The notes below the pieces were generated by a model that worked only from the letters and a program-made list of their open reading frames with translations, ran no database searches and was not told the origin of the DNA. The translations under genes and the position numbers were made by a program. Below, piece by piece: positions 4,991 through 60,642 of a stretch of DNA of 64,000 nt. The first letter of the stretch is position 1; the number at the start of each line of letters is the position of its first letter. Origin of the DNA: Candidatus Amphirhobacter sp. (GTDB lineage Bacteria > Pseudomonadota > Gammaproteobacteria > Tethybacterales > Tethybacteraceae); the NCBI GenBank assembly GCA_965222035.1, contig OZ244940.1, positions 1,287,134-1,351,133 on the forward strand. The letters are read 5' to 3'.

Positions 4991-7468
<2,478 letters not shown>

Positions 7469-41298: not shown

Positions 41299-41322
41299 GG
41301 CAAAGTGGGATAAAATACGCCT

Positions 41323-44300
41323 ATGGAAGGGCGTTTGATTCGCCATGAAAGGGGGGGGGGTAGCGCCCTTCTAAGCGGCCTGGCGGTTGCGGCCGCCTTG
41401 TTGCTGACGGGCGTGATGATGGCGCCGCAGGCGCATGCTCAGGTGCAGGTTGTCCTAGGAAACCTCCACAAGACAACGGCCGACAAGGTTCTCACTTATC
41501 CCTATGAGGCTGGCCTGACCGGCATCGCTTTCCATGTGACTACATGCGGCGCTCCATCCAACATTGTTCTGCAAACCCGCACCGACGATTTTGACCTGGT
41601 AAGTTATTTCGTCGTACAAGGCCAAATCGGCGTTCGAGAAGGCCGCGGCGACAGCCGAAATGCCGTCGGCCGCGTCCACTACCTGGAGCTAGTTGACGGC
41701 CGGGACAGCCTGCCGGACGGTCCTCTGACCGTTACGGTCAAAGTTTGCAACCAGGCGCCATCGGCCTACACCGTCACGGTGGCGACGTGGTACGACCAGG
41801 GCATGCACAGCGACCGGCCCGCCAGCCGCCACGTCCGAGACATTGCGCCTGGCCAAGACACCGGCATCGCCATTCATCGCAGCGCCAACACGTGTCGCTT
41901 CACCGACGTGCGGCTGGCGGCCGGCGCGCCGGCTTGGCTGGAGCTGCGCCGGCATCGCGCCGACGGCACCGCCGACGGCGACGCCGGGCAGCGTTTGACG
42001 GCGCGGATGGAGAAGGACCATGCCGACGACCGGCATGTGCGCGTGCGCTTCAAGGACGACGCCAGCATGGAGCCGGGCAGCTATGTGTTCTCGATCGTGA
42101 TGGCGCGCACGGCGACCAGCGGCGCGGGATGCACCGCCGCGAGCGCGGCGGCGTACACGCTAGGCTACACCCTCAACATCAGTTTGGGAGCCAGCTGGGA
42201 ACGTCAGGAATCCCTGAACAGCGACAGCGTCACAAGCCACAGTGCGGATGCTTTGGGCGGGCCGTTCGCATTGGCGATGGGCCCGCGCATCCACCGCAGC
42301 TCCTCTTCATGCCGGTGGACGGACGCGAGCCTGGTGGCCGGCGGCTCGTTCTTGGCTATGCAGCGCTACGCCACAACGGGCAACGAAGCGGTTGGCGCGC
42401 CGGCGACCAGCGTGACCGACGTGCGCATGCAGCGCGGCTCTCCGGGCGATCGATATCTCGGCTTGATCTATCGCCGGAATACGCCAGTGCCAGCGGGGAC
42501 GGTGACCGCGGCGGTGGAACTCAAGCCGGCCGCGCGCTGCGCGAATTACGTCGGCATCCCCGGGCCGCTGACGCTGAGCTTCACCGCCACGATCGGCGCG
42601 GCAGCTGCCAACACGGAGCCCTGGATCATCAAGACCGGCTTCGCGAGCTCGGCGCCGACCATCTCGGTCTTCAGCCCGGCCAGCATCCACACGTCCCGCA
42701 CATATAGGGAAATACATACCGGCATCTTCATCGGCCGGCGCACGGCGACTTGCAACGATTATTCCTACAACCTGCTCAATCACCGCGATCTGTTCGAAGT
42801 CGGATACTATCCACTTCACACAGGCTACCAAGACAATATTCAACCCGACGATTCGTTTAGCCGGAATCGCTCCTTCAATTTCGGTGACAACGATGGAGGC
42901 TTCGGCCTGCAGTTCGAGGCCGGCGCGCAGCCGGAGCCGAACACCACCATCACCCTGCATGTGGCGCTGGGCAGGTTTAGATGCGGCAGCCCCGCGCTGA
43001 CCACGCTGTCGTACACCATGACCATTGGCCCGGCGGCGCCCTGGGGAACCTTGGCGAACAATGTCGCGACGGTGACCACGCTGTTCAGGCCCACGCAGCT
43101 GGCGGCCGCCGCGTCGGCGACCGACACCGGCATCCGCTTCAACCGCGGCGTGGCGACGAGCATCTGCACGAACGTGGACGTGGAGCTGGCGAGCGGCAGC
43201 CGCACCCATGTGGAACTGCAGAAGTACAACGGGACGGCGGCCGACGGCGCGGCGGCGGTTTCGTTCGGGGGCCTGACCATGCATGCGGGCGCGACGGGCA
43301 ATCCGGTGGGCCTGCAGTTCAAGGCGGGCGCGTCGGTGCCGGCCGGCGTCCTGACGGTGGCGGTGATCGCCAAGCCCGCCGGCAGCTGCGATCATGCGGA
43401 AGAGCCAATCCCGCTGACGGTGAATTATGAGCTGGTGGTGGGCGAGCGGCAGCCGTGGCAGGTGCACGATCTCGACAGCATGGGACGGGTGGTACTGCTC
43501 GACGGCTTTGCGGCGCAAAGGAGCGCGGCCGACTCCGGCCTGCGGGTGCACCGCAAGCTGAGCGGCTGCAGCTCCATGGATGTGTCGCTGCCAGACGACG
43601 CGCCTGATTGGGCGATGCTGCAGCAGCATGGCCCGAGCGGCCCGGTCGGCGCGCGCGCGCGGACCCAGGCGGCGGTGCCGATGGCGGGCTCGGGCGCGGC
43701 CGGCGACCGGCATGTGCGGCTGATGATCGTGCCGTCGGGGACGCCCCTGCCGGATGCGCGGCTGACGATGGGCGTCGCGGTGGCGGCCAACGCATCATGC
43801 GGGGCCGGCAGCGACATTCCGGCGCCGCAGATGCTGTCGGGCGTGGTGGTGTTTGACACCCAAGGCGTGGGCACGGAGCAGGCGATCCAGGCGGGCGCTT
43901 CGGCGGCGGTACGGGCAATCGGCTTGGAAACCCTGGACGCGGTCATGGCGCGGCCGGACGCCGTGGCCGGATCATGGTCCAGCGAGCTGCTCGGCTTGAT
44001 GCACGCGCACGAGGCCGAGCTCGAGCGCGGCGAGTTCGAGCTGCGGGACCTGGCGGGCGAGGAGTTCGCGCTGGCTTTGTCGAACAGTCCGACCGGCTTG
44101 CCGGCGGGCCTGGCCCTGTGGGGACGTTTCGCTGCCTACGATGTCGGCAATGAGATCGAAGGCGGCGCGCGCTCGGACAATGAATTGTTCAGCGCGAGCT
44201 TCGGCCTCGACTACCGCCTGCGCGCGGGCATGATGCTCGGCCTGGGCTATGGCCACCACGAGATCGACGGCAGCTACGCTGCCAGCTCGGCCAGCGGCAT

Positions 44301-45150
44301 TTACCAGCTGGATCTGGATTTGTACCAGCCGTACGTCGTCGGCTCGATCGGTCCGGGGCTGCTGGCCGCCTTCGCGAGCCAGGGCTCGGGCGACCTGGTG
44401 ATGCACAGCCACGACGGCATCGCGCTGGCGCCGAGCGAGGCCGACTACCAAGGCTGGGGCCTGGGCTGGAGCAGCGCGGTCGAGCGCTGGGACCTGCTGC
44501 TGCGCGCGGGCGCCAGCACGGGCGAGCTCGACGTCGAGGATGAGACTTTGACGCTGGATACCGAAGCGGGCGCGGCGCGCCTGGCGGTGGCCTACGCGCC
44601 GCAGCGGGATTTGATCAACCATCTGCCCTTTCGTGCCGAGCTCGAGGTGGCCTGGGAGGACAACTGGGGCGATGTCGCGACCGACGCGAGCTGGCTGCTG
44701 GGCGCGGCCTTCGAGTACTCCGGCGCCGGGCCCATGCATGCGCGGGCGGCCTACCGCCGGGCGATTGCGGGCGACGGCGACCTGTCCGGCCTGGAGTTCG
44801 ACTTCCAGGTCGATCCGGCCCGCGGCGGCCTGGGTCCGTCCTTCGCCTTGCGCCCGGGCTATGGCTTGGAAACGGGCACTGACTTGTTCGCGCAAGCGGC
44901 GCGGCCGACTTCCTTTACCGCCGGCGCCGACCGCGGCCGGCGCCTGCGCGCCGAGATGGCTTGGGGCCTGCCGGTCAGCGGCGGGGTGCTGACGCCCTAT
45001 GGCGACTGGAGCATGAACGACGCGAGCACGCAGCGCCAACAACTGGGCCTGCGCCTGGGCACCGGCGCCTATGGCGATTGGAACTTGGGCTGGCGCAGCG
45101 CCGACAGCGCCGCTGACGAGCTGCATCTGGAACTGCGCATCGGCGACTAG
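41323..45150 (+). CDS. Paralogous autotransporter-like repeat protein (1275 aa): signal peptide, divergent N-terminal region, ~4 two-cysteine domains and the conserved C-terminal beta-barrel-like domain
   Basis: The start reads M E G R L I R H E R G G G S, a G10 tract, then the signal peptide ALLSGLAVAAALLLTGVMMAPQAHAQ. The C-terminal ~430 aa are homologous to the gene A C-terminus and end ELHLELRIGD. A TAAAAT box lies ~9 nt upstream. Confidence 0.85.
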   Translation: MEGRLIRHERGGGSALLSGLAVAAALLLTGVMMAPQAHAQVQVVLGNLHKTTADKVLTYPYEAGLTGIAFHVTTCGAPSNIVLQTRTDDFDLVSYFVVQGQIGVREGRGDSRNAVGRVHYLELVDGRDSLPDGPLTVTVKVCNQAPSAYTVTVATWYDQGMHSDRPASRHVRDIAPGQDTGIAIHRSANTCRFTDVRLAAGAPAWLELRRHRADGTADGDAGQRLTARMEKDHADDRHVRVRFKDDASMEPGSYVFSIVMARTATSGAGCTAASAAAYTLGYTLNISLGASWERQESLNSDSVTSHSADALGGPFALAMGPRIHRSSSSCRWTDASLVAGGSFLAMQRYATTGNEAVGAPATSVTDVRMQRGSPGDRYLGLIYRRNTPVPAGTVTAAVELKPAARCANYVGIPGPLTLSFTATIGAAAANTEPWIIKTGFASSAPTISVFSPASIHTSRTYREIHTGIFIGRRTATCNDYSYNLLNHRDLFEVGYYPLHTGYQDNIQPDDSFSRNRSFNFGDNDGGFGLQFEAGAQPEPNTTITLHVALGRFRCGSPALTTLSYTMTIGPAAPWGTLANNVATVTTLFRPTQLAAAASATDTGIRFNRGVATSICTNVDVELASGSRTHVELQKYNGTAADGAAAVSFGGLTMHAGATGNPVGLQFKAGASVPAGVLTVAVIAKPAGSCDHAEEPIPLTVNYELVVGERQPWQVHDLDSMGRVVLLDGFAAQRSAADSGLRVHRKLSGCSSMDVSLPDDAPDWAMLQQHGPSGPVGARARTQAAVPMAGSGAAGDRHVRLMIVPSGTPLPDARLTMGVAVAANASCGAGSDIPAPQMLSGVVVFDTQGVGTEQAIQAGASAAVRAIGLETLDAVMARPDAVAGSWSSELLGLMHAHEAELERGEFELRDLAGEEFALALSNSPTGLPAGLALWGRFAAYDVGNEIEGGARSDNELFSASFGLDYRLRAGMMLGLGYGHHEIDGSYAASSASGIYQLDLDLYQPYVVGSIGPGLLAAFASQGSGDLVMHSHDGIALAPSEADYQGWGLGWSSAVERWDLLLRAGASTGELDVEDETLTLDTEAGAARLAVAYAPQRDLINHLPFRAELEVAWEDNWGDVATDASWLLGAAFEYSGAGPMHARAAYRRAIAGDGDLSGLEFDFQVDPARGGLGPSFALRPGYGLETGTDLFAQAARPTSFTAGADRGRRLRAEMAWGLPVSGGVLTPYGDWSMNDASTQRQQLGLRLGTGAYGDWNLGWRSADSAADELHLELRIGD
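41351..41360 (+). repeat. Poly-G (G10) tract in the 5' coding region of paralog B, currently in frame
   Basis: The context gaaaGGGGGGGGGGtagcg matches the motif in the other paralogs. Confidence 0.7.
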
Positions 45151-45305: not shown

Positions 45306-46463
45306 TCAATTTTTCTTGCGCTTGCGCCGGGCTTTGAAGTATTGGAAGAAGGAGGGGATGGCAGCCCGTACCTTAGCGTCGTTCGTAAACCATACCAAGC
45401 TGTTGTCTAGCAGCAGATTGAAAATCTTGCGCGCCTCTTCGGAACTCATGCCATCATTGGTGGCCGCCAGCTCCGCGGCAACCTCTTCGGGCGGCAATGG
45501 CGGATCCTCATCTTCCACGATAGCCACTACCTGGCTGGCGTAGTCCAATGCGTCTGCGTCTGCGATCTTCTCGTAAACGCTGTGATAGTAAATTTGGCGC
45601 TCCTTCTGCATGGCGGCCTCGGCGCCCTGCGCCAGGGCCAGGTCGACTTCATTGCGCTTGGCTTTCCGCATGGCCTTCCACACTTCCCTGCCCGCCAGCT
45701 GGATGAAGTAAGGATAGTTGTCAGTCCAGCCCGCCATCAAATCAAGCGCCTCGTCCGCCACCTTCACGCCATTGTCCAGCAGCGGCTTGCTCAGTGCTTC
45801 GCGCACCGCCTCGTCGCTGAGCTGATGGATGTATATCGATTGGCAGCGATTGATGAAGGAGGCGTCGGCCTGGTGCAATCTCCCGTCGAGCGCTGGAGTA
45901 CCGGCTATCATCACCGCCAAAGGCCGCTTTAGCATGAGCATCTGCTGGCACGCCTGCAGCAAGTCCCCGAGGGACGTAACATCGTAGTGCATCGCCTCGT
46001 CCAGCAGCAGCAGCACGGGTTTCCTGCGCAGCAGCTGCTGCAACACTCGCGCAATCGTCCGCTTCTCGTAATGCTTCCGCCGCGCGGTAAAGATGGACAG
46101 GCTAAACTGGTAGAAAGCGTTCAGCCACAGCAATGCGTGCTCGCGGATGTCCATGCCATCAAGCAAGCCGTTGATGATGTCGCTGTCCGGGTTCAAGTTG
46201 CGCAGCCTGGCGATGTTAACCACGTGGATGCCTTGTTGCCGCGCTTCGACGCCAGCCACACCTAGCAGCGTCGTTTTGCCCGCCCCGCGCGGGCCGACAA
46301 TCTTGATGGGCGTGAGCGGAGAACGCTCCAGGCCGCCGCCGACCAGAGGCTTGGCGATCAAACGCAGGGTCTCGCTGATTATGTCCCGCTGCTCTTCCCG
46401 TCCCGCCAAATGCGGGGGTTCGAGCGCTGTGCCCGGAACAAACGGGTTTTCGACAGACCCCAT
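45306..46463 (-). CDS. AAA+ ATPase (ATPase_2/AAA_16-like; Walker A GPRGAGKT, Walker B LLLLDEAMHY), paralog 1
   Basis: 385 aa. The N-terminus reads ...NPFVPGTALEPPHLAGREEQ...IKIVGPRGAGKTTLL. It is about 85% identical to the ORF at 56256..57416. A TAAAAT box lies 7 nt upstream of the ATG on the minus strand. Confidence 0.8.
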   Translation of the reverse strand: MGSVENPFVPGTALEPPHLAGREEQRDIISETLRLIAKPLVGGGLERSPLTPIKIVGPRGAGKTTLLGVAGVEARQQGIHVVNIARLRNLNPDSDIINGLLDGMDIREHALLWLNAFYQFSLSIFTARRKHYEKRTIARVLQQLLRRKPVLLLLDEAMHYDVTSLGDLLQACQQMLMLKRPLAVMIAGTPALDGRLHQADASFINRCQSIYIHQLSDEAVREALSKPLLDNGVKVADEALDLMAGWTDNYPYFIQLAGREVWKAMRKAKRNEVDLALAQGAEAAMQKERQIYYHSVYEKIADADALDYASQVVAIVEDEDPPLPPEEVAAELAATNDGMSSEEARKIFNLLLDNSLVWFTNDAKVRAAIPSFFQYFKARRKRKKN

Positions 46464-46644
46464 GATTTGTATTTTACCCTTGCAAGAGGCGGAAAAAGCA
46501 AAAACAGGGGCTCCATGCTTGGCTTGGAGCGCTGCCAGCCCATCTTGGCCTGGTCCTCAATCAACGTTGCGCTCAGGCAACAACAATGCCGAGCATGCCC
46601 GCCTGCGGACAGGCTCCCTGCCAGGCATGCTTTAAAATCTCCGC

Positions 46645-48432
46645 ATGGCCGGCCTGCGTGCGTCCTTGTCCAAGTTGGTCCGCGCCGCCCTGGCGCTGGC
46701 CGTTGGCGCTATTGCCGCCGGTGCCCATGCGCAGTGGCAGACGCTGACCCAGGACAACATGAACACGGCGTCCTCGCTGGATCTGCTGGCGCTGCAGGCG
46801 GCGGGACCTGCGCCGACGGGCCTGATCGTACACCGCAAGACCAACAGCTGTACGAGCATTGACGTGGAGCTGGCGGCTAACGCGCCGGCGATGTTGCGGC
46901 TGCGGCAGTACCGCGGCGACCAACCCGAGGGCAGTGCGGAGCGCTCGCTGCAGGGCGTGTCGATGACCGGCGTGGAAGCGACGGACCGCCATGTGCGGGT
47001 GATGATCGCCAGCGGCGCTTCCCTGACGGTGGGCGCGACGGTGTTCGCGACCCTGACGGTGAAGGCGAACTCGACCTGCACTGGCTCGCAGCCGGCGGAG
47101 CAGCAGGTGACGGGCCGGGTGGTCGTGACCGGCACCGGCCTGGCGACCCAAGAGGCGGCCCAGGCGAGCAACGCCACCGCGCTGCGGCGCATCGGCACCG
47201 AGACGCTGGATGCCATCATGCTGCGCATGGACGCGGTGGCCGATGCTTCCGCCGCCACTGACCTGCGCGGCTTGGCCGCCATCCAGGCGCGGGATTCGCA
47301 GGAAGGCTTCGACCTGCGCGACCTGGCCGGCCAGGACTTCGTGCTGGGTCTGAACCAGCGCGCCAGCGACGGGCCCTTGAAGGCGGGCAACCTGGCGTTG
47401 TGGGGACGTTTCGGCCTCTATGCCCTGGATGCGGTCACTGACGGCGGCGTCAAGCATGACAGCGACCAGCTCAGCGCGAGCTTCGGCCTCGATTACCGCT
47501 TTCGCGACGACATGCTGCTGGGCTTTGGCTACGGCCACCACGGTTTCGAAGGCGGCTACGCCGGCCATCGCGAGGTCGCGGGCGACTACGTCTTGGATGT
47601 CAACGTGCTGCAGCCGTATGTGGTCGGGCGCTTCGGACCGCCGGGCTGGCTGGCGGCGTACGCCAGCATGGGCAAGGGCGAGATGCGGGTGAGCAACGGC
47701 GACGGCCTGCCGGCTGGCGAGTACGAGGTCGATTACAGCGGCTGGGGCTTCGGCTGGCGGCATGAGCTGCGGCAGGGCCTGCGCCTGCGCGCCGGCGCGA
47801 GCGGCGGCGAGCTGGACGCGGAGGATGGCGAGTTGTACCTGGATGTGGCGGCTGGCGCCGCGCAGCTGGCGGTCGGCTATGCGGTTAGGGCCGAGCTGAT
47901 CAAAGGCGCTGAGCTGCATCCGGTGATTGAGGTCGCCTGGGTGGATAAGTGGGGCGACGCGGCCACCGAGGCCACCTGGCTGTTCGCGGCCGCATTCGAG
48001 TATGCTGGCGAGGGTCCGATGCATATCCGGGCGGGCTATCGCCGGGCGATGGCCGGCGATGCCCTGTCCGGCGCTGAGATCGACGCGCGGATCGCGCCCG
48101 CTCGCGGCGGCCTGGGTCCGTCCCTGGCGCTGCGGCCCAGCTACGGCCTGCCGCGGGGGGATGAGTTGCTGCCTGATGCATCCGTCCTGTCCTTGCCGTC
48201 AGCTGCCGGGTACCGCGGCGTACGTCTGGACGCTGAGTTCGTCTGGGGCCTGCCAGTCAACGGCGGGGTCGCCACGCCGTACAGCGAATGGAGCTTGGAT
48301 GCGGATCAGGGCCATGCGGGTGGCCTGGGCTTGCGCTTGGGTACCGGCGCGTATGGCGATTGGGATTTGGGCTGGCGCCGCACAGTTAGCGCCACCGACG
48401 AGCTGCATCTGGAATTGCGCATCGGCGACTAG
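46645..48432 (+). CDS. Minimal family member (595 aa): canonical signal peptide, one two-cysteine domain and the C-terminal beta-barrel-like domain
   Basis: It starts MAGLRASLSKLVRAALALAVGAIAAGAHAQ with no homopolymer tract, followed by TGLIVHRKTNSCTSIDVELAANAPAMLRLRQY...DRHVRVMIASG...NSTC. The C-terminus is homologous to the other paralogs (...LWGRFGLY...LSASFGLDYRFRDDMLLGFGYG...ELHLELRIGD). A TAAAAT box lies 9 nt upstream. Confidence 0.85.
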   Translation: MAGLRASLSKLVRAALALAVGAIAAGAHAQWQTLTQDNMNTASSLDLLALQAAGPAPTGLIVHRKTNSCTSIDVELAANAPAMLRLRQYRGDQPEGSAERSLQGVSMTGVEATDRHVRVMIASGASLTVGATVFATLTVKANSTCTGSQPAEQQVTGRVVVTGTGLATQEAAQASNATALRRIGTETLDAIMLRMDAVADASAATDLRGLAAIQARDSQEGFDLRDLAGQDFVLGLNQRASDGPLKAGNLALWGRFGLYALDAVTDGGVKHDSDQLSASFGLDYRFRDDMLLGFGYGHHGFEGGYAGHREVAGDYVLDVNVLQPYVVGRFGPPGWLAAYASMGKGEMRVSNGDGLPAGEYEVDYSGWGFGWRHELRQGLRLRAGASGGELDAEDGELYLDVAAGAAQLAVGYAVRAELIKGAELHPVIEVAWVDKWGDAATEATWLFAAAFEYAGEGPMHIRAGYRRAMAGDALSGAEIDARIAPARGGLGPSLALRPSYGLPRGDELLPDASVLSLPSAAGYRGVRLDAEFVWGLPVNGGVATPYSEWSLDADQGHAGGLGLRLGTGAYGDWDLGWRRTVSATDELHLELRIGD

Positions 48433-48512
48433 GATTGGCCGGCGGGCTCCGGCTTCGGCGGTTTCCTGTATTGTAAAATGGCTTGAGATGGCCGCAGGAT
48501 TCTTGGATGAAA

Positions 48513-48521
48513 GGGGGGGGG
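48513..48521 (+). repeat. Poly-G (G9) tract; the length puts the upstream ATG and signal peptide out of frame in paralog D
   Basis: The context gatgaaagGGGGGGGGGtagcggccctctag matches E (G10) but has one G fewer. Confidence 0.8.
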
Positions 48522-48570
48522 TAGCGGCCCTCTAGGGCGTTGGCGCCCAGCCCTGGCGGCGCTGGCTTGC

Positions 48571-51500
48571 ATGCTGGCTTGCGCCTTCGCCGCCGAGGCG
48601 CAGCAACTAGGCAATCAGCACAGCGCGACGGCCGATGGCATCGTCAACCTGCCGTACGACAGCGGCAAGAGCACTGGCATCAGATTTCATGTAACCAGCT
48701 GCACCACTGGTGGTCGTTTTCGAAACGGTCTTTATTTGCGCAACGACGACTTTGTTTATCCTGAATTTATTTTTTACAACACCAACGGCAGTTTTTCCCA
48801 CCGATCAGATGCGATCAGTAACTTATTCTTTGGCCGTATAGCGCATTTTGCTGTCTTAAGCGTTGCCACCACGGAAGGAGTGCGGCGGCCGGAGTTCAAG
48901 ATCTGCAACCATGACCAGCTGGCCTACCCCGTAACGGTGGCAATCTGGGAGGACCAGGGGCAGGATGACGAAACGCCGGCGAGCAGCTACTTTAACGTAC
49001 GGAGCGCGGCGGCCGGCGTCGACACCGACATCGCCTTCCACCGCAGCGGCTCGACCTGCCGCTACAATGACGTTCAATTGGTCAATCCGCCTTCTTGGCT
49101 GGAGCTGCGCAAGTACACGGCCAGCGGGACTCCGGACGGCGCGGCGGGCACGCGCTTCACGGTGCGGATGGAGAAGGATCATGCGGAGGATCGCCAGGTG
49201 CGGCTGCTGTTCAAGGAAGGGGTGACGGTTGCGACGGGCCAGCACGTGGCGACCATGGCGGTGGCGCGGCATCTAGCGTCGGCCGGCTGCAGCGGCGGCC
49301 TGGACACGACGGTGACGCTGACGTACACGCTCAACATCACCGACCAGGCTGAATGGGCAGCGCAAGGCCCGGAAGAGGTTCGCGATGCTCGCGCTTTGCG
49401 CACCGACGCTCTCGGCGCGGCCTTGAACCTGACCATTCACCGCAGCTCGGAGATCTGCCGGTACACGTCGGTGTCGCTGGCGGGCGACGCCGGCTCGTTC
49501 CTGGAGCTGCGCGCCTATGCGACGGCGACGGGCCGCCAGGCGGGCGCGGCGGCGGCGAGCCTGCCGGGCGTGTTCATGCAGCGGGGCGCGGCGGGCGATC
49601 TCAACGTACGGGTGTACTCCAAGAGCGGCGCGGCTGCGCCGCAGCCGGGGAGGAAGGATGTGACGATCGTGGTCCAGCCCGGCGCCCGCTGCGGTTTCCA
49701 GCAGGGCTTGCCGGCGGCGCAGAGCATAGCGATTGCGTGGAACGTGCTCGCGCCCTACGGCTCGCCCGAGCCCTGGCAAGCAGGCAGCATCGATGATGCG
49801 ACGTCGGACGGACCGTTCAGCCCGCGGGCGGTGTCGGAAGCAACCGATCCAGTACCCGTCGGGATTTACCTGCAGCGCAACTCAGCCTCGTGCGTCAATA
49901 TGTACTATGAGCTGCTCAGCGGCCAGGAAGCGCTTGATTTCCATTTTGTAGCCCAAAACAGCCGCATCCGGCAAGAAGGTGACGTGATAGGTTTGAAGGC
50001 CAGCGGCAATCGCTCGGCTGGCCTGTATTTCGAGCCGGGCACGCAGCTGGAGTCCGGCGCCAAGCTGCCGGTGTCGATCCAGCTCCGGGCCTATCCGACC
50101 TGCAGCCAAGGCCCGGCGACCCAGACCATTGCGTTCACGTTGACGATGGGCGCGGCGGAGGCGTGGCGCGTCCTGGCAGGCGAGGTCGCGGCGGCGACGG
50201 CGCTGTTCCAGCCGGCGAGTTTGCGCGCGTCGACCTCGCCGACGGACACCGGTGTGCGCTTCCATCGCGGCACCTCGGCCTGTCCGCAGGTGGATGTGGC
50301 GGTGCGGCCGACGGCGTTCGTGGAGGTCCGCAAGTACAACGGCAGCGCGGCGGACGGCGCGGCGGCGCCTTCCCTGGCCAACGTGCGCATGCAGGCTGGC
50401 CATGCGGACGACCGGCTGGTGGGTCTGCAGTTCAAGGCGGGCGTTACGTTGCCGCCCGGTTTGTTGACCGCGACCTTGGTGGCCAAGGCGGCTTCGGACT
50501 GCACGCATGCCAATGCGCCGCAGCCGCTGACCTTGGCCTATGAATTGGCGGTGCAGGACGCCTGGCCATGGCGCGCGGCTGCGCAGGACAATTTCGGCGC
50601 GCCGGCGCTGATTGACACGCTGGAGCTCCAGAGATCCGGAGCGCGATCGACGGGGCTGCGTTTGCAGCGCAATTCCCGCGCCTGCGCGAGCACCGACGTG
50701 GCGCTGGCATCCGACGCGCCGGCGTATCTGTCGCTGCGGCGCTACAGCGCCACCGGCCCCGAGGGCGCTGCGGCGCGGTCGCTGAGCGGGGTGAACATGT
50801 CCGGCTCCGGAACGAATGACCGTCACGTGCGGATAGCGATCGCGGGCGGGACGTCGCTCACGATCGGCGCCGCCGTCGCGGTATCGCTGACGATCTCCGC
50901 CAACTCATCCTGCTCCGGCGCGGTGGGGGTACCGGCTGCGCAGGAGCTGGTGGGCTACGTGCTCGTCAGCGGCGGCGGCCTCGACACGGAGGCAGCCATG
51001 CAGGCGGGCACGGCCCTGGCGGTGCGGGCGCTGGGCATCGAGACATTGGGCGCGGTCATGGCGCGGCCGGGCGCGGCGTCGGACACATCCACGTCAGCGC
51101 AGCTGCTCGGCATGCTGGCGGCGAAGGAGAAAGAGCTCGAGAGCGGCGAGATCGACTTGCGGACGTTCCTCGCCGGCCAGCGGTTCTCCCTGCCGCTGTC
51201 GTCATCGGCCAGCGGCCTGCCGTCGGGCCTGATGCTGTGGGGCCGGGCGGCGGCGTATGAAGTGGGCTCGGAGAGCGAGAACGGCGCGCAGGTGGAAAGC
51301 GATTTGTTCAGCGGCAGCTTCGGCGTCGACTATCGCTTCACCGAGGGCATGCTGCTGGGTCTGGGCTACGGCCGCCACGGGCAAAAGGGCCAGTACCGCA
51401 ACGGCGGCGCAGCCGGCAGCTACCAGCTGGATTTGAATTTGTACCAGCCCTACGCCGCGGCGCGGATCGGCCCGGGCTGGCTGGTGGCTTACGGCAGCCA

Positions 51501-52269
51501 GGGCACGGGCAATCTGCTGCTGGAGGCCCAGGGCAATCTTACTTACCAGCCCCATCTCAAGGCCGATTATGTTGGCTGGGGCCTGGGCTGGTACAACGAC
51601 ATCGAGCGCTGGGACCTGCGCCTGCGCGCCGGGGCCAGCTCCGGCGAGCTCGAATTCGAGGAGGATCGCTTTGAGATGAACGCCGCAGCGGGCACCGCGC
51701 GCCTGGCGGTGGCCTATGCGCCGGGCCGCAACCTGGTCGTCGACATCCCGATGCAGCCGGAGTTCGAAGTGGCCTGGGCCGATGAATGGGGCGACGCCGC
51801 CGGCGATCCGAGCTGGCTGGTGGCGCTGGTGTTCGACTACGCCGGCACCGGTCCGATGCATCTGCGCGCCGCCTACCGTCATGCGGTCAGCGGCGGCGGC
51901 GACCTCGCCGGAGTGGAGCTGGACCTCCGCGTCGATCCGAACCGCGGCGGCTTAGGCCCCTCTTTCGCTCTGCGCCCGCATTACGGCATCGAAGCGGGAG
52001 AGGATTTGTTCGCACAAGCGGCGCGGCCGACCACCTTCGCCGCGGGCGCCGACCGCGGCCGGCGCCTGCAGGCCGAGATGGCCTGGGGCTTGCCAGTCAG
52101 CGGCGGGGTACTTACGCCCTATGGCGACTGGAGCATGGAGCGGCGGGATCGCAGCCGGCAGCTGGGCCTGCGCTTGGGTACCGGCGTCTACGGCGATTGG
52201 AACTTGGGCTGGCGCCGCGCGGGCCGCGCCGCGGACGAGCTGCATCTGGAATTGCGCATCGGCGACTAG
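48571..52269 (+). CDS. Paralog D (1232 aa from the internal ATG); by comparison with paralog E the native start is the ATG at 48488, which is currently out of frame because the poly-G tract is G9, consistent with a phase-OFF state
   Basis: With G9, the ATG at 48488 reads MAAGFLDERGGVAAL and stops at 48533-48535. The main frame is open only from the stop at 48508, and the first ATG (48571) leaves a truncated signal peptide, MLACAFAAEAQQ. One extra G would fuse them: MAAGFLDERGGGSGPLGRWRPALAALACMLACAFAAEA-QQ. The rest is about 80% identical to paralog E. Confidence 0.75.
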   Translation: MLACAFAAEAQQLGNQHSATADGIVNLPYDSGKSTGIRFHVTSCTTGGRFRNGLYLRNDDFVYPEFIFYNTNGSFSHRSDAISNLFFGRIAHFAVLSVATTEGVRRPEFKICNHDQLAYPVTVAIWEDQGQDDETPASSYFNVRSAAAGVDTDIAFHRSGSTCRYNDVQLVNPPSWLELRKYTASGTPDGAAGTRFTVRMEKDHAEDRQVRLLFKEGVTVATGQHVATMAVARHLASAGCSGGLDTTVTLTYTLNITDQAEWAAQGPEEVRDARALRTDALGAALNLTIHRSSEICRYTSVSLAGDAGSFLELRAYATATGRQAGAAAASLPGVFMQRGAAGDLNVRVYSKSGAAAPQPGRKDVTIVVQPGARCGFQQGLPAAQSIAIAWNVLAPYGSPEPWQAGSIDDATSDGPFSPRAVSEATDPVPVGIYLQRNSASCVNMYYELLSGQEALDFHFVAQNSRIRQEGDVIGLKASGNRSAGLYFEPGTQLESGAKLPVSIQLRAYPTCSQGPATQTIAFTLTMGAAEAWRVLAGEVAAATALFQPASLRASTSPTDTGVRFHRGTSACPQVDVAVRPTAFVEVRKYNGSAADGAAAPSLANVRMQAGHADDRLVGLQFKAGVTLPPGLLTATLVAKAASDCTHANAPQPLTLAYELAVQDAWPWRAAAQDNFGAPALIDTLELQRSGARSTGLRLQRNSRACASTDVALASDAPAYLSLRRYSATGPEGAAARSLSGVNMSGSGTNDRHVRIAIAGGTSLTIGAAVAVSLTISANSSCSGAVGVPAAQELVGYVLVSGGGLDTEAAMQAGTALAVRALGIETLGAVMARPGAASDTSTSAQLLGMLAAKEKELESGEIDLRTFLAGQRFSLPLSSSASGLPSGLMLWGRAAAYEVGSESENGAQVESDLFSGSFGVDYRFTEGMLLGLGYGRHGQKGQYRNGGAAGSYQLDLNLYQPYAAARIGPGWLVAYGSQGTGNLLLEAQGNLTYQPHLKADYVGWGLGWYNDIERWDLRLRAGASSGELEFEEDRFEMNAAAGTARLAVAYAPGRNLVVDIPMQPEFEVAWADEWGDAAGDPSWLVALVFDYAGTGPMHLRAAYRHAVSGGGDLAGVELDLRVDPNRGGLGPSFALRPHYGIEAGEDLFAQAARPTTFAAGADRGRRLQAEMAWGLPVSGGVLTPYGDWSMERRDRSRQLGLRLGTGVYGDWNLGWRRAGRAADELHLELRIGD

Positions 52270-52324
52270 GGTTGGCCGGCGGGCTCCGGCTCCGGCGGTT
52301 TCCTGTATTGTAAAATGGCTTGGA

Positions 52325-55300
52325 ATGGCCGCAGGATTTTTTGATGAAAGGGGGGGGGGTAGCGGTCCTCTAGGGCATTGCCGCTCAATCCTGGCGGCGC
52401 TAACTTGCATGCTGGCTTTGCCCTTCGCCGCCGAGGCGCAGCAACTAGGCAACCAGCATAGCGCGACGGCCGATCGCATCGTCAACCTGCCGTATGACAG
52501 CGGCAAGAGCACTGGCATCAAGTTCCACATCACCAGCTGCACCACCGGCGGTGGTTTTAGTTCCAGGATTTATCAACGCAACAACGATTTCATTACTCAC
52601 CTTTTTCTTGACTACAGCACGGACGGCAGTTATCTAGGCAGCACAAATTCAAGCAGTTACCCCTTCAGCAATAGTGTACTGCATTTTGCTGTCGTAAGTG
52701 TTGCCACCACGGAAGGAGTGCGACGCCCGGAAATAAAGATATGCAATCATGCGGACATGGCCTACGCCGTTACGGTGGCGAAGTGGGAGGACCAGGGCCA
52801 GGCTGACGACACGCCGGAGAGCAGGTACTATCACGTGCGCGGCGCAGCGGCCGGCGTCGACACCGGCATCGCCTTCCACCGCAGCGGCTCGACCTGCCGC
52901 TACAATGATGTTCAATTGGTCAATCCGCCCTCCTGGCTGGAGCTGCGCAAGTACACGGCCAGCGGGACGCCGGACGGTGCCGCCGGCATGCGCTTCACGG
53001 TGCGGATGGAGAAGGATCATGCGGAGGATCGCCAGGTGCGGCTGCTGTTCAAGGAAGGGGTGACGGTTGCGGTGGGCCAGCACATGGCGACCATGGCGGT
53101 AGCGCGCCATTTAGCGTCGGCCGGATGCAGCGGGGGCCTGGACACGACGGTGACGCTCGTGCACACGCTCAACATCACCGACCAGGCCGACTGGACGGCG
53201 CAGGGCGGGGAAAACGCCATCGAGCCTTACGACATTCGCTCCGACGCTCTCGGCGCGGCGGGGGTGGGCCTGGGCCTGACGCTTCACCGCAGCTCGGAAG
53301 TCTGCCGGTACACGTCGGTGTCGTTGGCGGGCGACGCAAGCTCTTTCTTGGAGCTGCGCACCTACTCGACGGCGACGCGGCGGCTGGTCGGTACGCCGGC
53401 CGCGAGCCTGCCGGGCGTGTTCATGCAGCGCGGCGTGGCGGGCGACCGCAACGTGCAGGTGTTCTCCAAGAGTGGCGCGTCGGTGACGCCGGGGACCAAG
53501 GCGGTGACGATCGCGGTCCAGCCCGGTGCCCGCTGCGGTTTTCAGCAGGGCTTGCCGTCGGCACAGACCTTGGCGTTGCAGTGGACGGTGCTCTCGCCCT
53601 TCAGCTCGCCCGAGGCCTGGCAATTAGGCAGCGGCGATGACGCGGTACCGGACGGGCCGTTCAGCCCGCGGGCGGTGTCGGAGTCCTCTGATCCGGTGCC
53701 CGTCGGGGTGTACCTGCATCGTACTTCAGCGTCCTGTAGTTTCATCCATCATGAGATTCTAAGCGGCCATGAAGCGCTCGATATATATCTTGTGAATCCT
53801 GGCCGTACCAGCCGCACCTGGCGGGGCGATTTAGCAGCAATAAATATCAACTTCAACTCGGCCGCCCTGTATTTCGAGCCGGGCGTGCAGCTGGCGTCCG
53901 GCAGCGAGCTGCCCGTGTCAATCCAAATTCGCCCTGATGCGACATGCAACGCGGGCGCGGCCGTCCAGACCCTGGCGTTCACCTTGACGATGGGCACGGC
54001 GGAGGCGTGGCGCGCCCTGGCCGGCGATGTCGCGACGGCGACGATGCTGTTCCAGCCGGCGAGCCTGCGCGTGTCGACCTCGCCGACGGACACCGGCGTG
54101 CGCTTCCATCGCGGCACCTCGGCCTGTCCGCAGGTGGATGTGGCGGTGGGCCCGACGGCGTTCATGGAACTGCGCAAGTACAATGGCGGTACCGCGGACG
54201 GCGCGGCGGCAGTGTCTCTGGCCGACGTGCGCATGCAGGCGAGCCATGCCGACGACCGGCGGGTGGGGGTGCAGTTCAAGGCGGGCGTCACGCTGCCGCC
54301 GGGCTTGTTCACGGCGACCGTGGTGGCCAAGGCGGCCTCAGGCTGCGCGCATGGCAACGCGCCGGTGCCCTTGACCTTGGCTTATGAATTGGCGGTGCTG
54401 GACGCCTGGCCGTGGCGGACAGCGGCGCAGGACAATTTCGGCACGCCAGCGCAGCTGGACAGGCTGGAGCTCGAGGGTTCCGGCGCGCTGCCGACTGGAT
54501 TGCGCGTGCAGCGCAATTCGCGGGCCTGCGCGAGTACCGATGTGGCGCTGGCATCCGACGCGCCGTCATATCTGTCGCTGCGGCGCTACAGCGCCACCGG
54601 TCCCGACGGCGCGGCGGCGCGGTCGCTGGCGGGCGTGAACATGACCGGCTCCGGCGCGGCCGACCGCCATGTGCGGGTGATGATCGCGGGTGGGACGGCG
54701 CTTGATGTCGGCGCCGCGGTCACGGTTTCGCTGACGGTATCCGCCAACGCATCCTGCTCGGGCGCGGCGGGCGTACCGGCGGCGCAGGAGCTGGTGGGCT
54801 ACGTGCTCGTCAGCGGCGGCGGGCTGCTGGCGGAGGCGGCCATGCAGGCGGGCACTGCCTTGGCGGTGCGGGCGCTGGGCATCGAGACGCTGGGCGCGGT
54901 CATGGCGCGTCCCGGCGCGCCATCAGGAGCGGCGGCCAGCGAGCAGCTGCTCGGCATGCTGGCGGCGAAGGAAGCGGAGCTCGAGAGCGGCGCGATCGAC
55001 TTGCGCGAGTTCCTCGCCGGCCAGAGTTTCGCGCTGCCGCTGGCGTCCGCCGACGGCGGCCTGCCGCCAGGCTTGATGATGTGGGGCCGGGCGGCGGCAT
55101 ATGACGTGGGCGCGGCGGTCGAGAACGGTCCGCGGGTGGACAGCGATCTGTTCAGCGGCAGCTTCGGCGTCGACTATCGTTTTCGCGAGGGCATGCTGCT
55201 GGGGCTGGGCTTTGGCCGGCACGAGCTGTCGGGTCGTTACAGCAATCGGGGTTCCACCGGCAGCTATCAACTGGATTTGAATCTGTACCAGCCTTATGCC

Positions 55301-56113
55301 GCGGCGCAGCTCGGCCCGGGCTGGCTGGCGGCCTACGGCAGCCAGGGCACGGGCGACTTGCTGCTCGAGATCCAGGATGGCGTGGACCGCAAGCCCAGCC
55401 TCAAGGCCGACTACACCGGCTGGGGCCTGGGCTGGTACAACGACATCGAGCGCTGGGACCTGCGCCTGCGGGCCGGCGCGAGCGCCGGCGAGCTGGAGTT
55501 CGAGGAGAATCGCCTTGAGCTGAATACCGAAGCGGGCACGGCGCGCCTGGCGGTGGCCTATGCGCCGGGCCGCGACCTGGTCGTCGACATCCCGATCCAG
55601 CCGGAGGTGGAGATCGCCTGGGCCGATGAATGGGGCGACGCCGCCGGCGACTCAAGCTGGCTGCTGGCGCTGGCCTTCGACTACGCCGGCGACGGTCCGC
55701 TGCAGCTGCGCACCACCTACCGCCGCGCAGTCAGCGGCGGCGGCGACCATGCCGGGGCCGAGCTGGACGTCCGCGTCGATGCCGGCCGCGGTGGCTTGGG
55801 CCCCTCCTTCGCTTTGCGCCCGCATTACGGCATTGAAGGGGGAGCGGATTTGTTCGCGCAGGTGGCGCAGCCGACCACCTTCGCCGCAGGCGACGACCGC
55901 GGCCGTCGCCTGCAAGCTGAGATGGCCTGGGGCCTGCCGGTCAACGGCGGGGTGCTGGTGCCGTACGGTGGCTGGAGCATGGAACGACGCGATCACAGCC
56001 GGCGGCTGGGACTGCGCCTGGACAGCGGCGCCTACGGCGACTGGAACCTGGGCTGGCGCAGCGCCGACAGCAGTATCGACGAGCTGCATCTGGAACTGCG
56101 CATCGGCGACTAA
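52325..56113 (+). CDS. Paralog E (about 1262 aa): signal peptide after an in-frame G10 tract, ~4 two-cysteine domains and the C-terminal beta-barrel-like domain
   Basis: The ATG at 52325 reads MAAGFFDERGGGSGPLGHCRSILAALTCMLALPFAAEAQQLGNQHSATADRIV.... The listed ORF 52121..56113 only extends upstream because there is no stop in the frame. The C-terminus ends ELHLELRIGD. Confidence 0.85.
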   Translation: MAAGFFDERGGGSGPLGHCRSILAALTCMLALPFAAEAQQLGNQHSATADRIVNLPYDSGKSTGIKFHITSCTTGGGFSSRIYQRNNDFITHLFLDYSTDGSYLGSTNSSSYPFSNSVLHFAVVSVATTEGVRRPEIKICNHADMAYAVTVAKWEDQGQADDTPESRYYHVRGAAAGVDTGIAFHRSGSTCRYNDVQLVNPPSWLELRKYTASGTPDGAAGMRFTVRMEKDHAEDRQVRLLFKEGVTVAVGQHMATMAVARHLASAGCSGGLDTTVTLVHTLNITDQADWTAQGGENAIEPYDIRSDALGAAGVGLGLTLHRSSEVCRYTSVSLAGDASSFLELRTYSTATRRLVGTPAASLPGVFMQRGVAGDRNVQVFSKSGASVTPGTKAVTIAVQPGARCGFQQGLPSAQTLALQWTVLSPFSSPEAWQLGSGDDAVPDGPFSPRAVSESSDPVPVGVYLHRTSASCSFIHHEILSGHEALDIYLVNPGRTSRTWRGDLAAININFNSAALYFEPGVQLASGSELPVSIQIRPDATCNAGAAVQTLAFTLTMGTAEAWRALAGDVATATMLFQPASLRVSTSPTDTGVRFHRGTSACPQVDVAVGPTAFMELRKYNGGTADGAAAVSLADVRMQASHADDRRVGVQFKAGVTLPPGLFTATVVAKAASGCAHGNAPVPLTLAYELAVLDAWPWRTAAQDNFGTPAQLDRLELEGSGALPTGLRVQRNSRACASTDVALASDAPSYLSLRRYSATGPDGAAARSLAGVNMTGSGAADRHVRVMIAGGTALDVGAAVTVSLTVSANASCSGAAGVPAAQELVGYVLVSGGGLLAEAAMQAGTALAVRALGIETLGAVMARPGAPSGAAASEQLLGMLAAKEAELESGAIDLREFLAGQSFALPLASADGGLPPGLMMWGRAAAYDVGAAVENGPRVDSDLFSGSFGVDYRFREGMLLGLGFGRHELSGRYSNRGSTGSYQLDLNLYQPYAAAQLGPGWLAAYGSQGTGDLLLEIQDGVDRKPSLKADYTGWGLGWYNDIERWDLRLRAGASAGELEFEENRLELNTEAGTARLAVAYAPGRDLVVDIPIQPEVEIAWADEWGDAAGDSSWLLALAFDYAGDGPLQLRTTYRRAVSGGGDHAGAELDVRVDAGRGGLGPSFALRPHYGIEGGADLFAQVAQPTTFAAGDDRGRRLQAEMAWGLPVNGGVLVPYGGWSMERRDHSRRLGLRLDSGAYGDWNLGWRSADSSIDELHLELRIGD
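52350..52359 (+). repeat. Poly-G (G10) tract in the 5' coding region of paralog E, in frame (ON configuration)
   Basis: ttttttgatgaaagGGGGGGGGGGtagcggtcct. Confidence 0.8.
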
Positions 56114-56255: not shown

Positions 56256-57416
56256 TCAATCCTTGTTTTCCTCTTGCCGGGCCTTGAAATATTGGAAGAA
56301 GGATGGGATGGCAGGTTGCACCTTGGCGTCATCCGCAAACCATATCAAGCTGTTGTCCAGCAACAGATTGAAAATCTTGCGCGCCTCTTGGGAACTCATG
56401 CCATTATTGGCGGCTGCGAGCTTCTCCATTACTTTTTCAGATGTGAACGGCGAATCCGCGCCTTCCACGATGGCCACGACCTGGTTGGCGTAGCCCAACG
56501 CGTCTGCGTCTGCGATCTTCTCGTAAACGCTGTGGTAGTAAATGCGGCGCTCCTTCTGCATGGCAGCCTCGGCGCCCTGCGCCAGGGCCAGGTCGACTTC
56601 ATTGCGCTTGGCTTTCCGCATGGCTTTCCACACTTCCCTGCCCGCCAGCTGGACGAAGTAAGGATAGTTGTCAGTCCAGCTCGCCATCAAATCGAGCGCC
56701 TCGTCCGCCACCTTCACGCCATTGTCCAGCAGTGGCTTGCGCAGGGCGTCGCGCACCGCCTCGTCGCTGAGTTGGTGGATGTACATCGATTGGCAGCGAT
56801 TGATGAAGGAAGCATTGGCCTGATTCAGCTTTCCATCGAGAGCGGGCGTACCGGCTATCATCACCGCCAAAGGCCGCTTCTGCTTGATCATCTGCTGACA
56901 CGCCTGCAGTAGTCTGCCAAAGGACTTGGCATTATAGTGCATCGCCTCATCTAGCGACAACAGTACGGGATGCCGGCTCAGCCGGGCTCGCAGCACTCTC
57001 TTGATCGTCTGCTGCTCGTAATGCTTCCGCTTCGCGGAAAAAATGGACAGGCCAAGCTGGTAGAAACCGCTCAGCCACAGCAGGGACCGCTCGCGGAGGT
57101 CCATGCCCTCCAGCAAGCCGCTGATGATTTCGCTGCTCGGATCCAAGCGAAGCAGTTCGGCACTGTCAACCACATGGATGCCCTGTCGCCGCGCCTCTGC
57201 TTCAGCCAGGCCCAGCAGGGATGTCTTGCCCGCCCCCCGCGGGCCGACGATCTTGATGGGCGTGAGCGGAGAACGCTCCAGCCTGCCGTCGACCAGGGGT
57301 TTGGTGATTATACGCAGGGTCTCGCTGATTATGTCCCGCTGCTCTTCCCGCCCCGCCAAATGCGGGGGCTCGGTGGCAGTGCCCGGAACAAACGGGTTTT
57401 CGACAGACCCCATGGT
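56256..57416 (-). CDS. AAA+ ATPase paralog 2 (Walker A GPRGAGKT, Walker B LLSLDEAMHY)
   Basis: 386 aa from the ATG complementary to 57414-57416 (MGSVENPFVPGTATEPPHLAGREEQ...), which is the homologous start to paralog 1. The listed ORF extends a further 43 codons upstream but without homology. Confidence 0.8.
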   Translation of the reverse strand, partial: TMGSVENPFVPGTATEPPHLAGREEQRDIISETLRIITKPLVDGRLERSPLTPIKIVGPRGAGKTSLLGLAEAEARRQGIHVVDSAELLRLDPSSEIISGLLEGMDLRERSLLWLSGFYQLGLSIFSAKRKHYEQQTIKRVLRARLSRHPVLLSLDEAMHYNAKSFGRLLQACQQMIKQKRPLAVMIAGTPALDGKLNQANASFINRCQSMYIHQLSDEAVRDALRKPLLDNGVKVADEALDLMASWTDNYPYFVQLAGREVWKAMRKAKRNEVDLALAQGAEAAMQKERRIYYHSVYEKIADADALGYANQVVAIVEGADSPFTSEKVMEKLAAANNGMSSQEARKIFNLLLDNSLIWFADDAKVQPAIPSFFQYFKARQEENKD

Positions 57417-57550: not shown

Positions 57551-57943
57551 ATGACCAAGCGGATGCGCTTCCTGCCCCTTTTGCTGCTGCCGCTACTGCT
57601 GCAGGGATGCGGTGGCTTCCTCACCGAGATGAAATGCCGCAATGGCCCGCTGCAGCAGGAGGTGTCGTCGCTGTGGGAGCGCATCGTCGAGCTGCGCGGC
57701 AACGCCAGGCGGGGCTACGCTCTCCATGTACAGTACGTCTCCGAGCAGGAGCCGTACACCGACAAGGACGACCAGGGCCGCGAGGTGACGCGGTACCGCA
57801 GAGTGGAGCGGCGGGTCGAGACGCCGGTGTCGATCGACGTCGAGGCCCAGCGGGCGCAGGCCGAGGCCCTGGCACGCAGCGCCGGCCGGATCGAGGACGC
57901 GGCCGAGCAAGAGTACCTCAAGTGCCTCGCCGCCAACAGCTGA
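57551..57943 (+). CDS. Small lipoprotein (130 aa), paralog 1
   Basis: MTKRMRFLPLLLLPLLLQGCGG contains the lipobox LLQGC. About 60% identical to 58144..58542 (GPLQQE..S...R..ELRGN..RGYALH.QYV.E.EPYTD.D..GR.VTR.R.V.RRVETPV.ID...QRAQAE.L.RS..RI.DAA.QEYLKC). A TAAAAT box lies 10 nt upstream. Confidence 0.7.
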   Translation: MTKRMRFLPLLLLPLLLQGCGGFLTEMKCRNGPLQQEVSSLWERIVELRGNARRGYALHVQYVSEQEPYTDKDDQGREVTRYRRVERRVETPVSIDVEAQRAQAEALARSAGRIEDAAEQEYLKCLAANS

Positions 57944-57956
57944 CGGATCGCGCTCG

Positions 57957-58109
57957 ATCCCTTGGCGACGCTTGACCGCAAGAGTTAGCGCGGCAGGCGC
58001 TGCTACTGCTGGAGCGACATGCCGCCTGAGCACCGGCGCCTATGGCGACACTGGAAACTTGGCTGGTGCTGCCGACGAGTTGCTTCTGGAAATGCGCATC
58101 GGCGACTAG
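57957..58109 (+). pseudogene. Mosaic remnant: a decayed duplicate of the 5' end of the DUF2723 gene (57957-58028), fused to a degraded 3' end of an autotransporter-family gene (58029-58109, encoding ...GTGAYGDTGNLAGAADELLLEMRIGD*)
   Basis: 57944-58028 aligns with 58543-58625 (cgctcgat.c.ttggcg.cgcttgaccgcaag..ttagcgcggcaggcgctgc..ctgctggagcg) but carries a 2-nt insertion that breaks the frame. 58029-58109 aligns with the last ~30 codons of the paralog genes (ggcgcctatggcga...gagctgcatctggaactgcgcatcggcgactag) with internal deletions. It is followed by a cctgtgtaaaat promoter-like box like the one upstream of genes D and E. Confidence 0.65.
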
Positions 58110-58143
58110 GCGCAGCCGTTCCTGTGTAAAATATCATACGGCT

Positions 58144-58560: not shown

Positions 58561-60642
<2,082 letters not shown>

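Follow-up and report, generated by a model that had tools for sequence, protein, structure and literature searches.

In the 64-kb window analysed here (the whole stretch of contig OZ244940.1 of Candidatus Amphirhobacter sp., 64,000 nucleotides (nt) in length), gene D is one of five members, designated A to E, of a family of autotransporter-like genes. The coding body of D is preceded by a leader that contains an ATG at position 48488 and, between this ATG and the body, an uninterrupted run of nine guanines (G9). D is considered, with a probability of roughly 0.7, to be a functional member of this family that starts at ATG 48488 and undergoes phase variation by slipped-strand mispairing at the poly-G tract. 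At the observed tract length D would be OFF, and its tandem paralogue E, which carries a G10 tract, would be ON.

Leader of gene D and comparison with gene E

The start of D in a mechanically generated list of open reading frames (ORFs) is ATG 48571. An ATG is also present at 48488–48490, and the 83-nt offset between the two codons places ATG 48488 out of frame with the D body. With G10 or G7 in the leader, the frame opened at 48488 would read through into the body. A second ATG at 48507, in the +1 frame relative to 48488, has a Shine-Dalgarno-like AGGA 7 nt upstream (48496–48499), and the TGA that overlaps it closes the third frame, that of the D body, immediately before the tract. At G9, D is OFF for both upstream ATGs, so the conclusion that the gene is out of phase is independent of which start is real.

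Global alignment of 48440–48620 (D) with 52277–52460 (E), a check proposed in an earlier reading made from the letters of the window alone (the sequence-only reading), yielded 90% identity, and the sole frame-changing difference between the two leaders was one G in the tract (G9 in D, G10 in E; coordinates in Table 1). G runs in the window comprise 114 of length 4, 34 of length 5 and one of length 6, none of length 7 or 8, and two each of G9 and G10, with nothing longer. All four long tracts are located 28–58 nt past the first ATG of four paralogues on the same strand (A, B, D and E). C runs of at least seven were absent from the 64-kb window.

The segment between the tract and the internal methionine codon was open and contained neither indels nor stops in all ten D/E-type leaders. 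Within its 17 codons, variable sites were distributed 8/4/9 over the three codon positions, a bias that is uninformative. The body of D extends over 1232 codons without a stop, and its ratio of nonsynonymous to synonymous substitution rates (dN/dS) against relatives was 0.25–0.44. D is intact and not decaying; the tract is its only lesion. The RNA folds of the D and E leaders were no better than those of shuffled sequences (z-score +0.85), and the idea of a structured element acting as a riboswitch or frameshift signal was therefore rejected. A search of the window against Rfam returned no family.

A start cassette common to 15 leaders

Leaders were compared for A, B, D and E and for 11 family genes (handles beginning with L) from four metagenome assemblies of the European Nucleotide Archive, ERZ23495924, ERZ23495954, ERZ23496987 and ERZ26695794 (15 leaders, five assemblies in all). 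The same cassette was found in 15/15: a TA[AG]AAT hexamer, a spacer, ATG or GTG, 16–45 nt, a tract of G8–G10, TAG and a second stop. The hexamer precedes the first ATG/GTG by 6–8 nt in 14 leaders and by 14 nt in the remaining one. The tract is directly followed by TAG and the other wrong frame is stopped 4–5 codons further on, stops in both wrong frames within 0–5 codons of the tract thus being conserved throughout. Over 200 nt, the leader of L085 differs from that of E by G9 in place of G10 and by four substitutions, and by nothing else.

The first start is in frame with the body in six leaders (A, B, E, L001g2, L002 and L083) and out of frame in nine (D, L001g1, L001g3 and L084–L089), and in every in-phase family gene it is the first start that is in phase. 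G9 was the commonest tract length among OFF loci; L088 and L089, OFF at G10, would come into phase with a G11 or G8 tract. An ATG at the position and in the frame equivalent to 48507 occurs in ten of the 15 leaders and was never the only in-phase start (0/10). Start codons in two frames upstream of the tract, with the third frame closed by the TGA of ATGA, were likewise present in 10/15. Three of the properties by which contingency loci are recognised were found, namely a homopolymer in the 5' coding region, a reading frame that depends on its length, and a difference in length between near-identical alleles.

Individual leaders showed peculiarities of their own. In L083 (9903–9951), a G7 run lies between TAAAAT and ATG in addition to the G9 tract, and both ATGs share the same frame and are in phase. 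L087 carries G8 at 6105 and T8 at 6180 upstream of its family gene. The leader of gene A contains two adjacent slippery runs (A9 and G9), and in that of gene B (41323–41375) an inverted repeat (GAAGGGCG / CGCCCTTC) flanks the G tract, with a fold z-score of -2.15, unlike D and E.

Relatives of the family were absent from scans of GTDB species representatives and JGI metagenomes. Exact look-ups of the D ORF (from 48571), the E ORF (from 52121) and the public protein P0001 in a contig index gave no match. A scan of metagenome DNA for the post-tract motif returned two matches, both of which were unrelated and attributed to chance.

Promoter spacing and signal peptide

The hexamer TA[AT]AAT is rare in the window, which has a G+C content of 66.5%, with 18 sites on both strands. 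At 7 of these 18 sites, an ATG opening at least 100 codons follows at a distance of 6–8 nt (background 1.35%, binomial P ~2e-9); the genes concerned are A, B, C, E, two ATPase genes and an SLFN/AlbA_2 gene (TATAAT), and D represents an eighth similar site. A -10-like hexamer adjoining the ATG is a recurrent gene-start architecture in the window. In published work, a -10 motif abutting the ORF is a documented signature of leaderless genes (PMC12340547, PMC3898074), and the hexamer spacing in D corresponds to it, a -10 element being positioned close upstream of the start without a Shine-Dalgarno sequence. Since TAAAAT ends 8 nt upstream of 48488, transcription probably starts at this ATG or within 1–2 bases of it, and the D mRNA is probably leaderless.

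Signal peptides were assessed by crude descriptors (charge and apolar core). The product initiated at 48571 begins with MLACAFAA EA, which comprises 8 apolar residues and no charged N-region, and the product initiated at 48488 with G10 would contain three K/R residues, a 16-residue apolar core and AEA, the same layout as in the tract-free gene C. By these descriptors, an N-terminal Sec signal peptide is obtained from a start upstream of the tract and not from 48571. Visual inspection of the motif LAALAC led to the rejection of a lipoprotein reading, residues -3 to -1 being incompatible with a lipobox.

Together, the signal peptide, the promoter architecture and the in-phase pattern favour ATG 48488 as the real start. 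The sequence-only reading had placed the conserved start of D at this codon, with the phase lost at the poly-G tract, and the 15 leaders, the hexamer-ATG spacing, the signal-peptide logic and the intact, constrained body all agree with this assignment; a competing candidate for the start in a different frame, ATG 48507, had however escaped it.

Proposed switch and points against it

According to the proposed mechanism, the hypermutable poly-G tract, located in the region that encodes the beginning of the signal peptide, would gate the expression of D. A leaderless mRNA starting at about 48488 would be translated from this position. At G10 (or G7 or G13), the ribosome would read MAAGFLDERGGGSGPLGRWRPALAALACMLACAFAAEA and then the mature protein, which would be exported; export and the signal-peptide cleavage site are predicted from the N-terminal residues. 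At the observed G9, translation would halt after 15 codons at TAG 48533, leaving D OFF, and E with its G10 tract would be ON. Slipped-strand mispairing at replication would add or remove one G and flip each paralogue independently, so that a population with mixed surface repertoires would arise. Such switching would be reversible within one population. The sequence-only reading had described D as frameshifted and phase-variable: the frameshift stands (G9 versus G10, stop after 15 codons), and the term phase-variable is kept as an interpretation of consensus assemblies.

Several points weigh against this interpretation. Tract lengths were taken from consensus assemblies, which hold no per-read variation, and two of the source assemblies have contig names resembling long-read output, in which G9 and G10 are often confused. 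Common descent links the 15 leaders, and the counts obtained from them are not independent. Three leaders have GTG in place of ATG at the first position, and in E. coli leaderless mRNAs are initiated only weakly at GTG. A scan with the sigma-70 consensus found no full promoter, because a -35 element was absent. ATG 48507 has the better Shine-Dalgarno-like sequence and could be the real start. Finally, nine OFF genes among 15 is a share that would also be expected of decaying genes, though the bodies are intact.

A more elaborate version, which is regarded as doubtful, would treat the leader as a portable three-state cassette in which the -10 hexamer is followed by a leaderless AUG in frame 1, an AUG led by a Shine-Dalgarno sequence in frame 2, a TGA that closes frame 3, the G tract and stops in both wrong frames. 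Whether the protein is exported from the leaderless start, exported from the canonical start or not made at all would depend on the tract length modulo 3, and the canonical start would give a different N-region and probably a different yield.

Three further loci bear on the mobility of the cassette. In L084 (2034–5876), a D-type leader with G9 is joined to a body 94.5% identical to that of E, and this gene occupies the place of D plus E in the window; a single hybrid gene at this position points to recombination or deletion between the tandem paralogues. In L087 (633–650), an orphan cassette, ATGGGGGGGGGTAGC, is intergenic and has no family gene behind it. At 58030–58108 of the window, there is a relic 3' end of a family gene (...LLLEMRIGD, stop) that lacks a body and is followed by TAAAAT at 58127 and a TMEM260-like glycosyltransferase gene (58561–60642). 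In the three-state reading, the L084 hybrid, the L087 orphan and the relic count as evidence that recombination may carry the cassette from one giant adhesin gene to another.

Alternative explanations

The alternative that fares best, although it is still unlikely, assigns the real start to ATG 48507 (MKGGGS...), served by AGGA, and reduces 48488 to a 5' leader or an upstream mini-ORF; on this assignment, a G8 or G11 tract would switch D ON, and E at G10 would likewise be OFF. The AGGA at 7 nt fits this assignment, as does the more conventional signal peptide formed by MKGGGS and the apolar core, but the Shine-Dalgarno-like motif is not kept in B, L088 and L089, and it is the spacing from the hexamer to the first ATG that is conserved. 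In B, D/E and L088/L089, three leader types that diverge from one another, the motif ATGA(A)AG adjoins the tract; nevertheless, the 48507-type ATG is missing from 4 of the 15 leaders (A, L001g1, L001g2 and L087). In L083, a fifth leader without it in the +1 frame, and in the public protein P0018, this ATG and the first one lie in a common frame, which is in phase. None of the ten leaders that carry it in the +1 frame had it in phase, whereas the first start was in phase in three of the same ten (P(0/10) = 0.017 under equal thirds, for loci that are not independent).

Considerably less probable is a miscount of the homopolymer, such that the true tract of D would be G10 and the gene ON but mis-assembled. 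The distinction between G9 and G10 is the most error-prone call on most platforms, and G9 is the very length that is commonest among OFF loci. On the other hand, G10 was called twice in the same assembly, the A9G9 tract of gene A is in frame, and a 21.7-kb ORF with 21 runs of 5–6 nt shows no frameshift. Miscounting would moreover require errors in 9 of the 15 tracts across five assemblies, and L088 and L089, which are OFF at G10, would need G11 or G8. Even if the G9 of D were miscounted, the tract would still be prone to slippage and the conclusion on the start codon would hold.

There is only a slight chance that D is a fixed pseudogene, or that its product is rescued by slippage of RNA polymerase or by ribosomal frameshifting on the G run. 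Out-of-phase genes make up 9/15 of the family, and long homopolymers are known sites of RNA polymerase slippage. A pseudogene is opposed by the restriction of the D lesion to the tract, with a 1232-codon body that is open and constrained (dN/dS as above), and an OFF state by design is suggested by the conserved stops that come directly after the tract in either wrong frame; rescue is opposed by the lack of a stimulatory RNA structure in the leader folds and in the Rfam search.

Genuine initiation at ATG 48571, with the tract lying in a 5' untranslated region and tuning transcription or translation from there, is scarcely credible, since, although every public D/E-type call begins at this conserved internal methionine, MLACAFAAEA is too short and uncharged for the signal peptide of an outer-membrane protein, A- and B-type leaders have no equivalent usable methionine, the tract-to-methionine segment is open and free of indels in 10/10 D/E-type leaders, and no Shine-Dalgarno-like motif precedes 48571.

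Gene calls and public annotation

The mechanical ORF list starts D at 48571 and E at 52121. In the public collection, D and E are found on a 1.86-Mb contig, which carries two additional family members, P0009 and P0014, beyond the limits of the window. The public protein P0007 (1232 residues) is D from 48571, with 0 differences from the window translation, and P0001 (1234 residues, 0 differences) is E from the internal ATG 52409. D/E-type homologues in this collection begin at the internal methionine in 12 of 12 cases, irrespective of tract phase, and gene A, without an equivalent internal methionine, has a public call that begins at ATG 19533 and runs across the tract (P0019, identical). Because the D/E-type public calls all start at the internal methionine, the mis-annotation amounts to a systematic 28-codon truncation of both D and E.

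These data also bear on the remaining statements of the sequence-only reading. Frame arithmetic and the start of P0007 at 48571 confirmed that the start of D is mis-called and that ATG 48488 is out of frame. The start proposed for E, 52325, proved to be in frame with the body. The open frame of E reaching back to 52121 had been regarded as an artefact, and rightly so, since the extension is made up of the 3'-terminal part of D, read in a different frame, and of intergenic sequence, and is not preceded by a hexamer resembling a promoter. The expected extension of E to 52121 by annotation pipelines did not materialise, 52409 being the start in the public call for this genome.

As a consequence, every public D/E-type call in the lineage is without its first 28 codons, so that localisation predictors would miss the signal peptide and class large surface adhesins as cytoplasmic proteins of unknown function. 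Genes in the OFF phase may be discarded or silently shortened during annotation.

Comparison with known systems

In Neisseria gonorrhoeae, pilC1 and pilC2 are switched on and off by slipped-strand mispairing at a poly-G tract in the signal-peptide region (Jonsson et al. 1991, as summarised in PMC13190605). The likeness to D and E extends to the signal-peptide position of the poly-G, the frame switching of a surface protein and the possession of a separate tract by each paralogue. Unlike D and E, the pilC product is a pilus tip adhesin and not autotransporter-like, and switching was shown experimentally in a cultured pathogen; a start-adjacent -10 hexamer is not described for pilC.

Homopolymeric tracts in the coding regions of autotransporters are known from Campylobacter capD (PMC7168839) and Bordetella pertussis bapC and tcfA (PMC1891110). 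As in these genes, a G/C homopolymer of variable length with an ON/OFF effect is located inside the coding sequence of an autotransporter-family protein. The capD, bapC and tcfA tracts differ in having no conserved start cassette common to paralogues and in being associated with other passenger domains, and the beta-domain found here is, unlike theirs, too divergent to pass the Pfam threshold alone.

Haemophilus influenzae licA (lic1) has starts in two of three frames upstream of its repeat (PMC2212159), and in both systems the number of repeat units determines whether a start is in phase and, if so, which one. In licA, the repeat is the tetranucleotide CAAT and the product a cytoplasmic choline kinase; in the present family, use of the second ATG is putative (0/10 in phase). 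The TANNNT-type hexamer and the lack of a Shine-Dalgarno sequence are shared with leaderless genes of Deinococcus-Thermus (PMC12340547) and Mycobacterium tuberculosis (PMC3898074), for which transcription starts were mapped, whereas here the architecture is deduced from spacing alone. A limited literature search found no description of a leaderless architecture combined with a phase-variable tract.

The autotransporter-like family

The coordinates of the family genes, of the leader elements of D and E and of neighbouring genes are listed in Table 1.

Table 1. Features of the D and E leaders, the gene family and its neighbourhood (window positions).
Feature	Position	Strand	Remarks
TAAAAT, -10-like promoter hexamer of D	48474–48479	+	Ends 8 nt upstream of ATG 48488
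ATG 48488 and its 15-codon frame in the G9 state	48488–48535	+	MAAGFLDERGGVAAL; stop TAG 48533–48535
ATGA, second ATG	48507–48510	+	Offset by +1 from the 48488 frame; brought into phase by G8 or G11 only
Poly-G tract of D, G9, putative switch element	48513–48521	+	25 nt after ATG 48488; OFF length for both upstream ATGs
TAG abutting the 3' end of the D tract	48522–48524	+	Stops the 48507 frame at G9; kept post-tract in 15/15 leaders
Remainder of the predicted signal peptide, body frame	48520–48600	+	GSGPLGRWRPALAALACMLACAFAAEA; predicted cleavage after AEA
Body of D	48571–52269	+	1232 codons (P0007); tandem beta-sandwich modules and C-terminal autotransporter-like barrel
Artefactual upstream extension of the E open frame	52121–52324	+	Overlaps the 3' end of D (D ends at 52269) in another frame
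TAAAAT hexamer of E	52311–52316	+	8 nt before ATG 52325
Gene E from the conserved start ATG 52325	52325–56113	+	In frame with G10; 1262 codons
Poly-G tract of E, G10	52350–52359	+	ON length for ATG 52325
Gene A	19533–41258	+	7241 codons; TAAAAT 19520–19525; composite A9G9 tract 19571–19588, in frame
Gene B	41323–45150	+	1275 codons; TAAAAT 41311–41316; G10 tract 41351–41360, in frame
Gene C	46645–48432	+	595 codons; no G tract; TAAAAT 46633–46638, 6 nt before ATG
P-loop ATPase genes (Pfam AAA_22)	45306–46463 and 56256–57413	-	79% identical to each other; TAAAAT 7 nt before each ATG
SLFN/AlbA_2 + HATPase_c_4 gene	17522–19150	-	Directly upstream of giant gene A; TATAAT 8 nt before ATG
Small 130-codon gene	57551–57943	+	Lipoprotein-like N-terminus (LLLQGC); TAAAAT 10 nt upstream

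Gene C is a short member of the family, consisting of one module and the barrel, with a canonical signal peptide encoded from its hexamer-adjacent ATG. Searches against Pfam and NCBIfam gave no family above threshold for D or E, NCBIfam provided no name for D/E, C, the small lipoprotein or the ATPases, and the first 1156 and last 1085 residues of the gene A product yielded no Pfam domain. The last ~400 residues of E matched PF03797 with 22.3 bits, below the cut-off of 26 bits, and matches to this family at an E value <=0.01, again below threshold, were obtained for 10 of 18 family members. A profile built from the five C-termini of the window retrieved 738 clusters among 1.84 billion representative proteins, always at the C-terminus; many of these proteins are several thousand residues long. 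In eight of ten sampled remote matches, PF03797 was detected at 34–52 bits, alongside Ig-like, cadherin-like, He_PIG or Calx-beta domains. A search of PDB sequences with the family profile gave no match.

A low-confidence AlphaFold model of the C-terminal region, with a predicted local distance difference test (pLDDT) score of 52, contained helices followed by at least 12 long strands, the helices at residues 10–38 ahead of the strands having pLDDT values of 34–62. The top Foldseek matches of this model were the beta-domains of Hbp, BrkA, NalP and EspP, with template modelling scores (TM-scores) of 0.35–0.5 at the pLDDT of 52. A partial model of the passenger, likewise of low confidence (pLDDT 59, modules up to 88), showed tandem beta-sandwich modules. 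All family members end in ...L(H/Q)LELRIGD, or in IGN or IGE (e.g. window positions 52243–52266 and 56087–56110), and the aromatic last residue of the beta-signal is absent from all of these C-termini. An aromatic C-terminal residue is usual in outer-membrane beta-barrels; it is typical and not defining. By transitive homology, the products of genes A to E are classed as autotransporter-like surface proteins.

Neighbouring genes and host

A gene for an AAA_22 ATPase is situated beside nearly every family locus (L001, L083, L084, L086, L087, L088 and L089), and L087 has two. The second ATPase gene of the window is given as 429 residues by the ORF lister and comprises 385 residues from its hexamer-adjacent ATG. 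The small gene at 57551–57943 is kept beside the family loci in L084, L085 and L088.

The window begins with dnaA and gyrB. GyrB is at most 68% identical to that of any GTDB species representative (best match: a metagenome-assembled genome of an uncultured gammaproteobacterium), with the remaining listed matches at ~50%. Judged from these GyrB identities, the host is an uncultured, deep-branching gammaproteobacterium.

Implications

Poly-G contingency loci are best known in host-adapted pathogens such as Neisseria, Campylobacter, Bordetella and Helicobacter, and the poly-G switch as a mechanism is already well known. The twists added by gene D and its relatives are the probable leaderless start, a cassette common to very different paralogues, and the host lineage. 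Of these, the coupling of a leaderless start to a frameshift switch would be a small and testable one. The three-state cassette, if it were true, would provide combinatorial surface variation in an uncultured gammaproteobacterium. The presence of four poly-G loci within 33 kb of the genome of such an organism suggests strong fluctuating selection on its surface, exerted by a host, by phages or by grazers.

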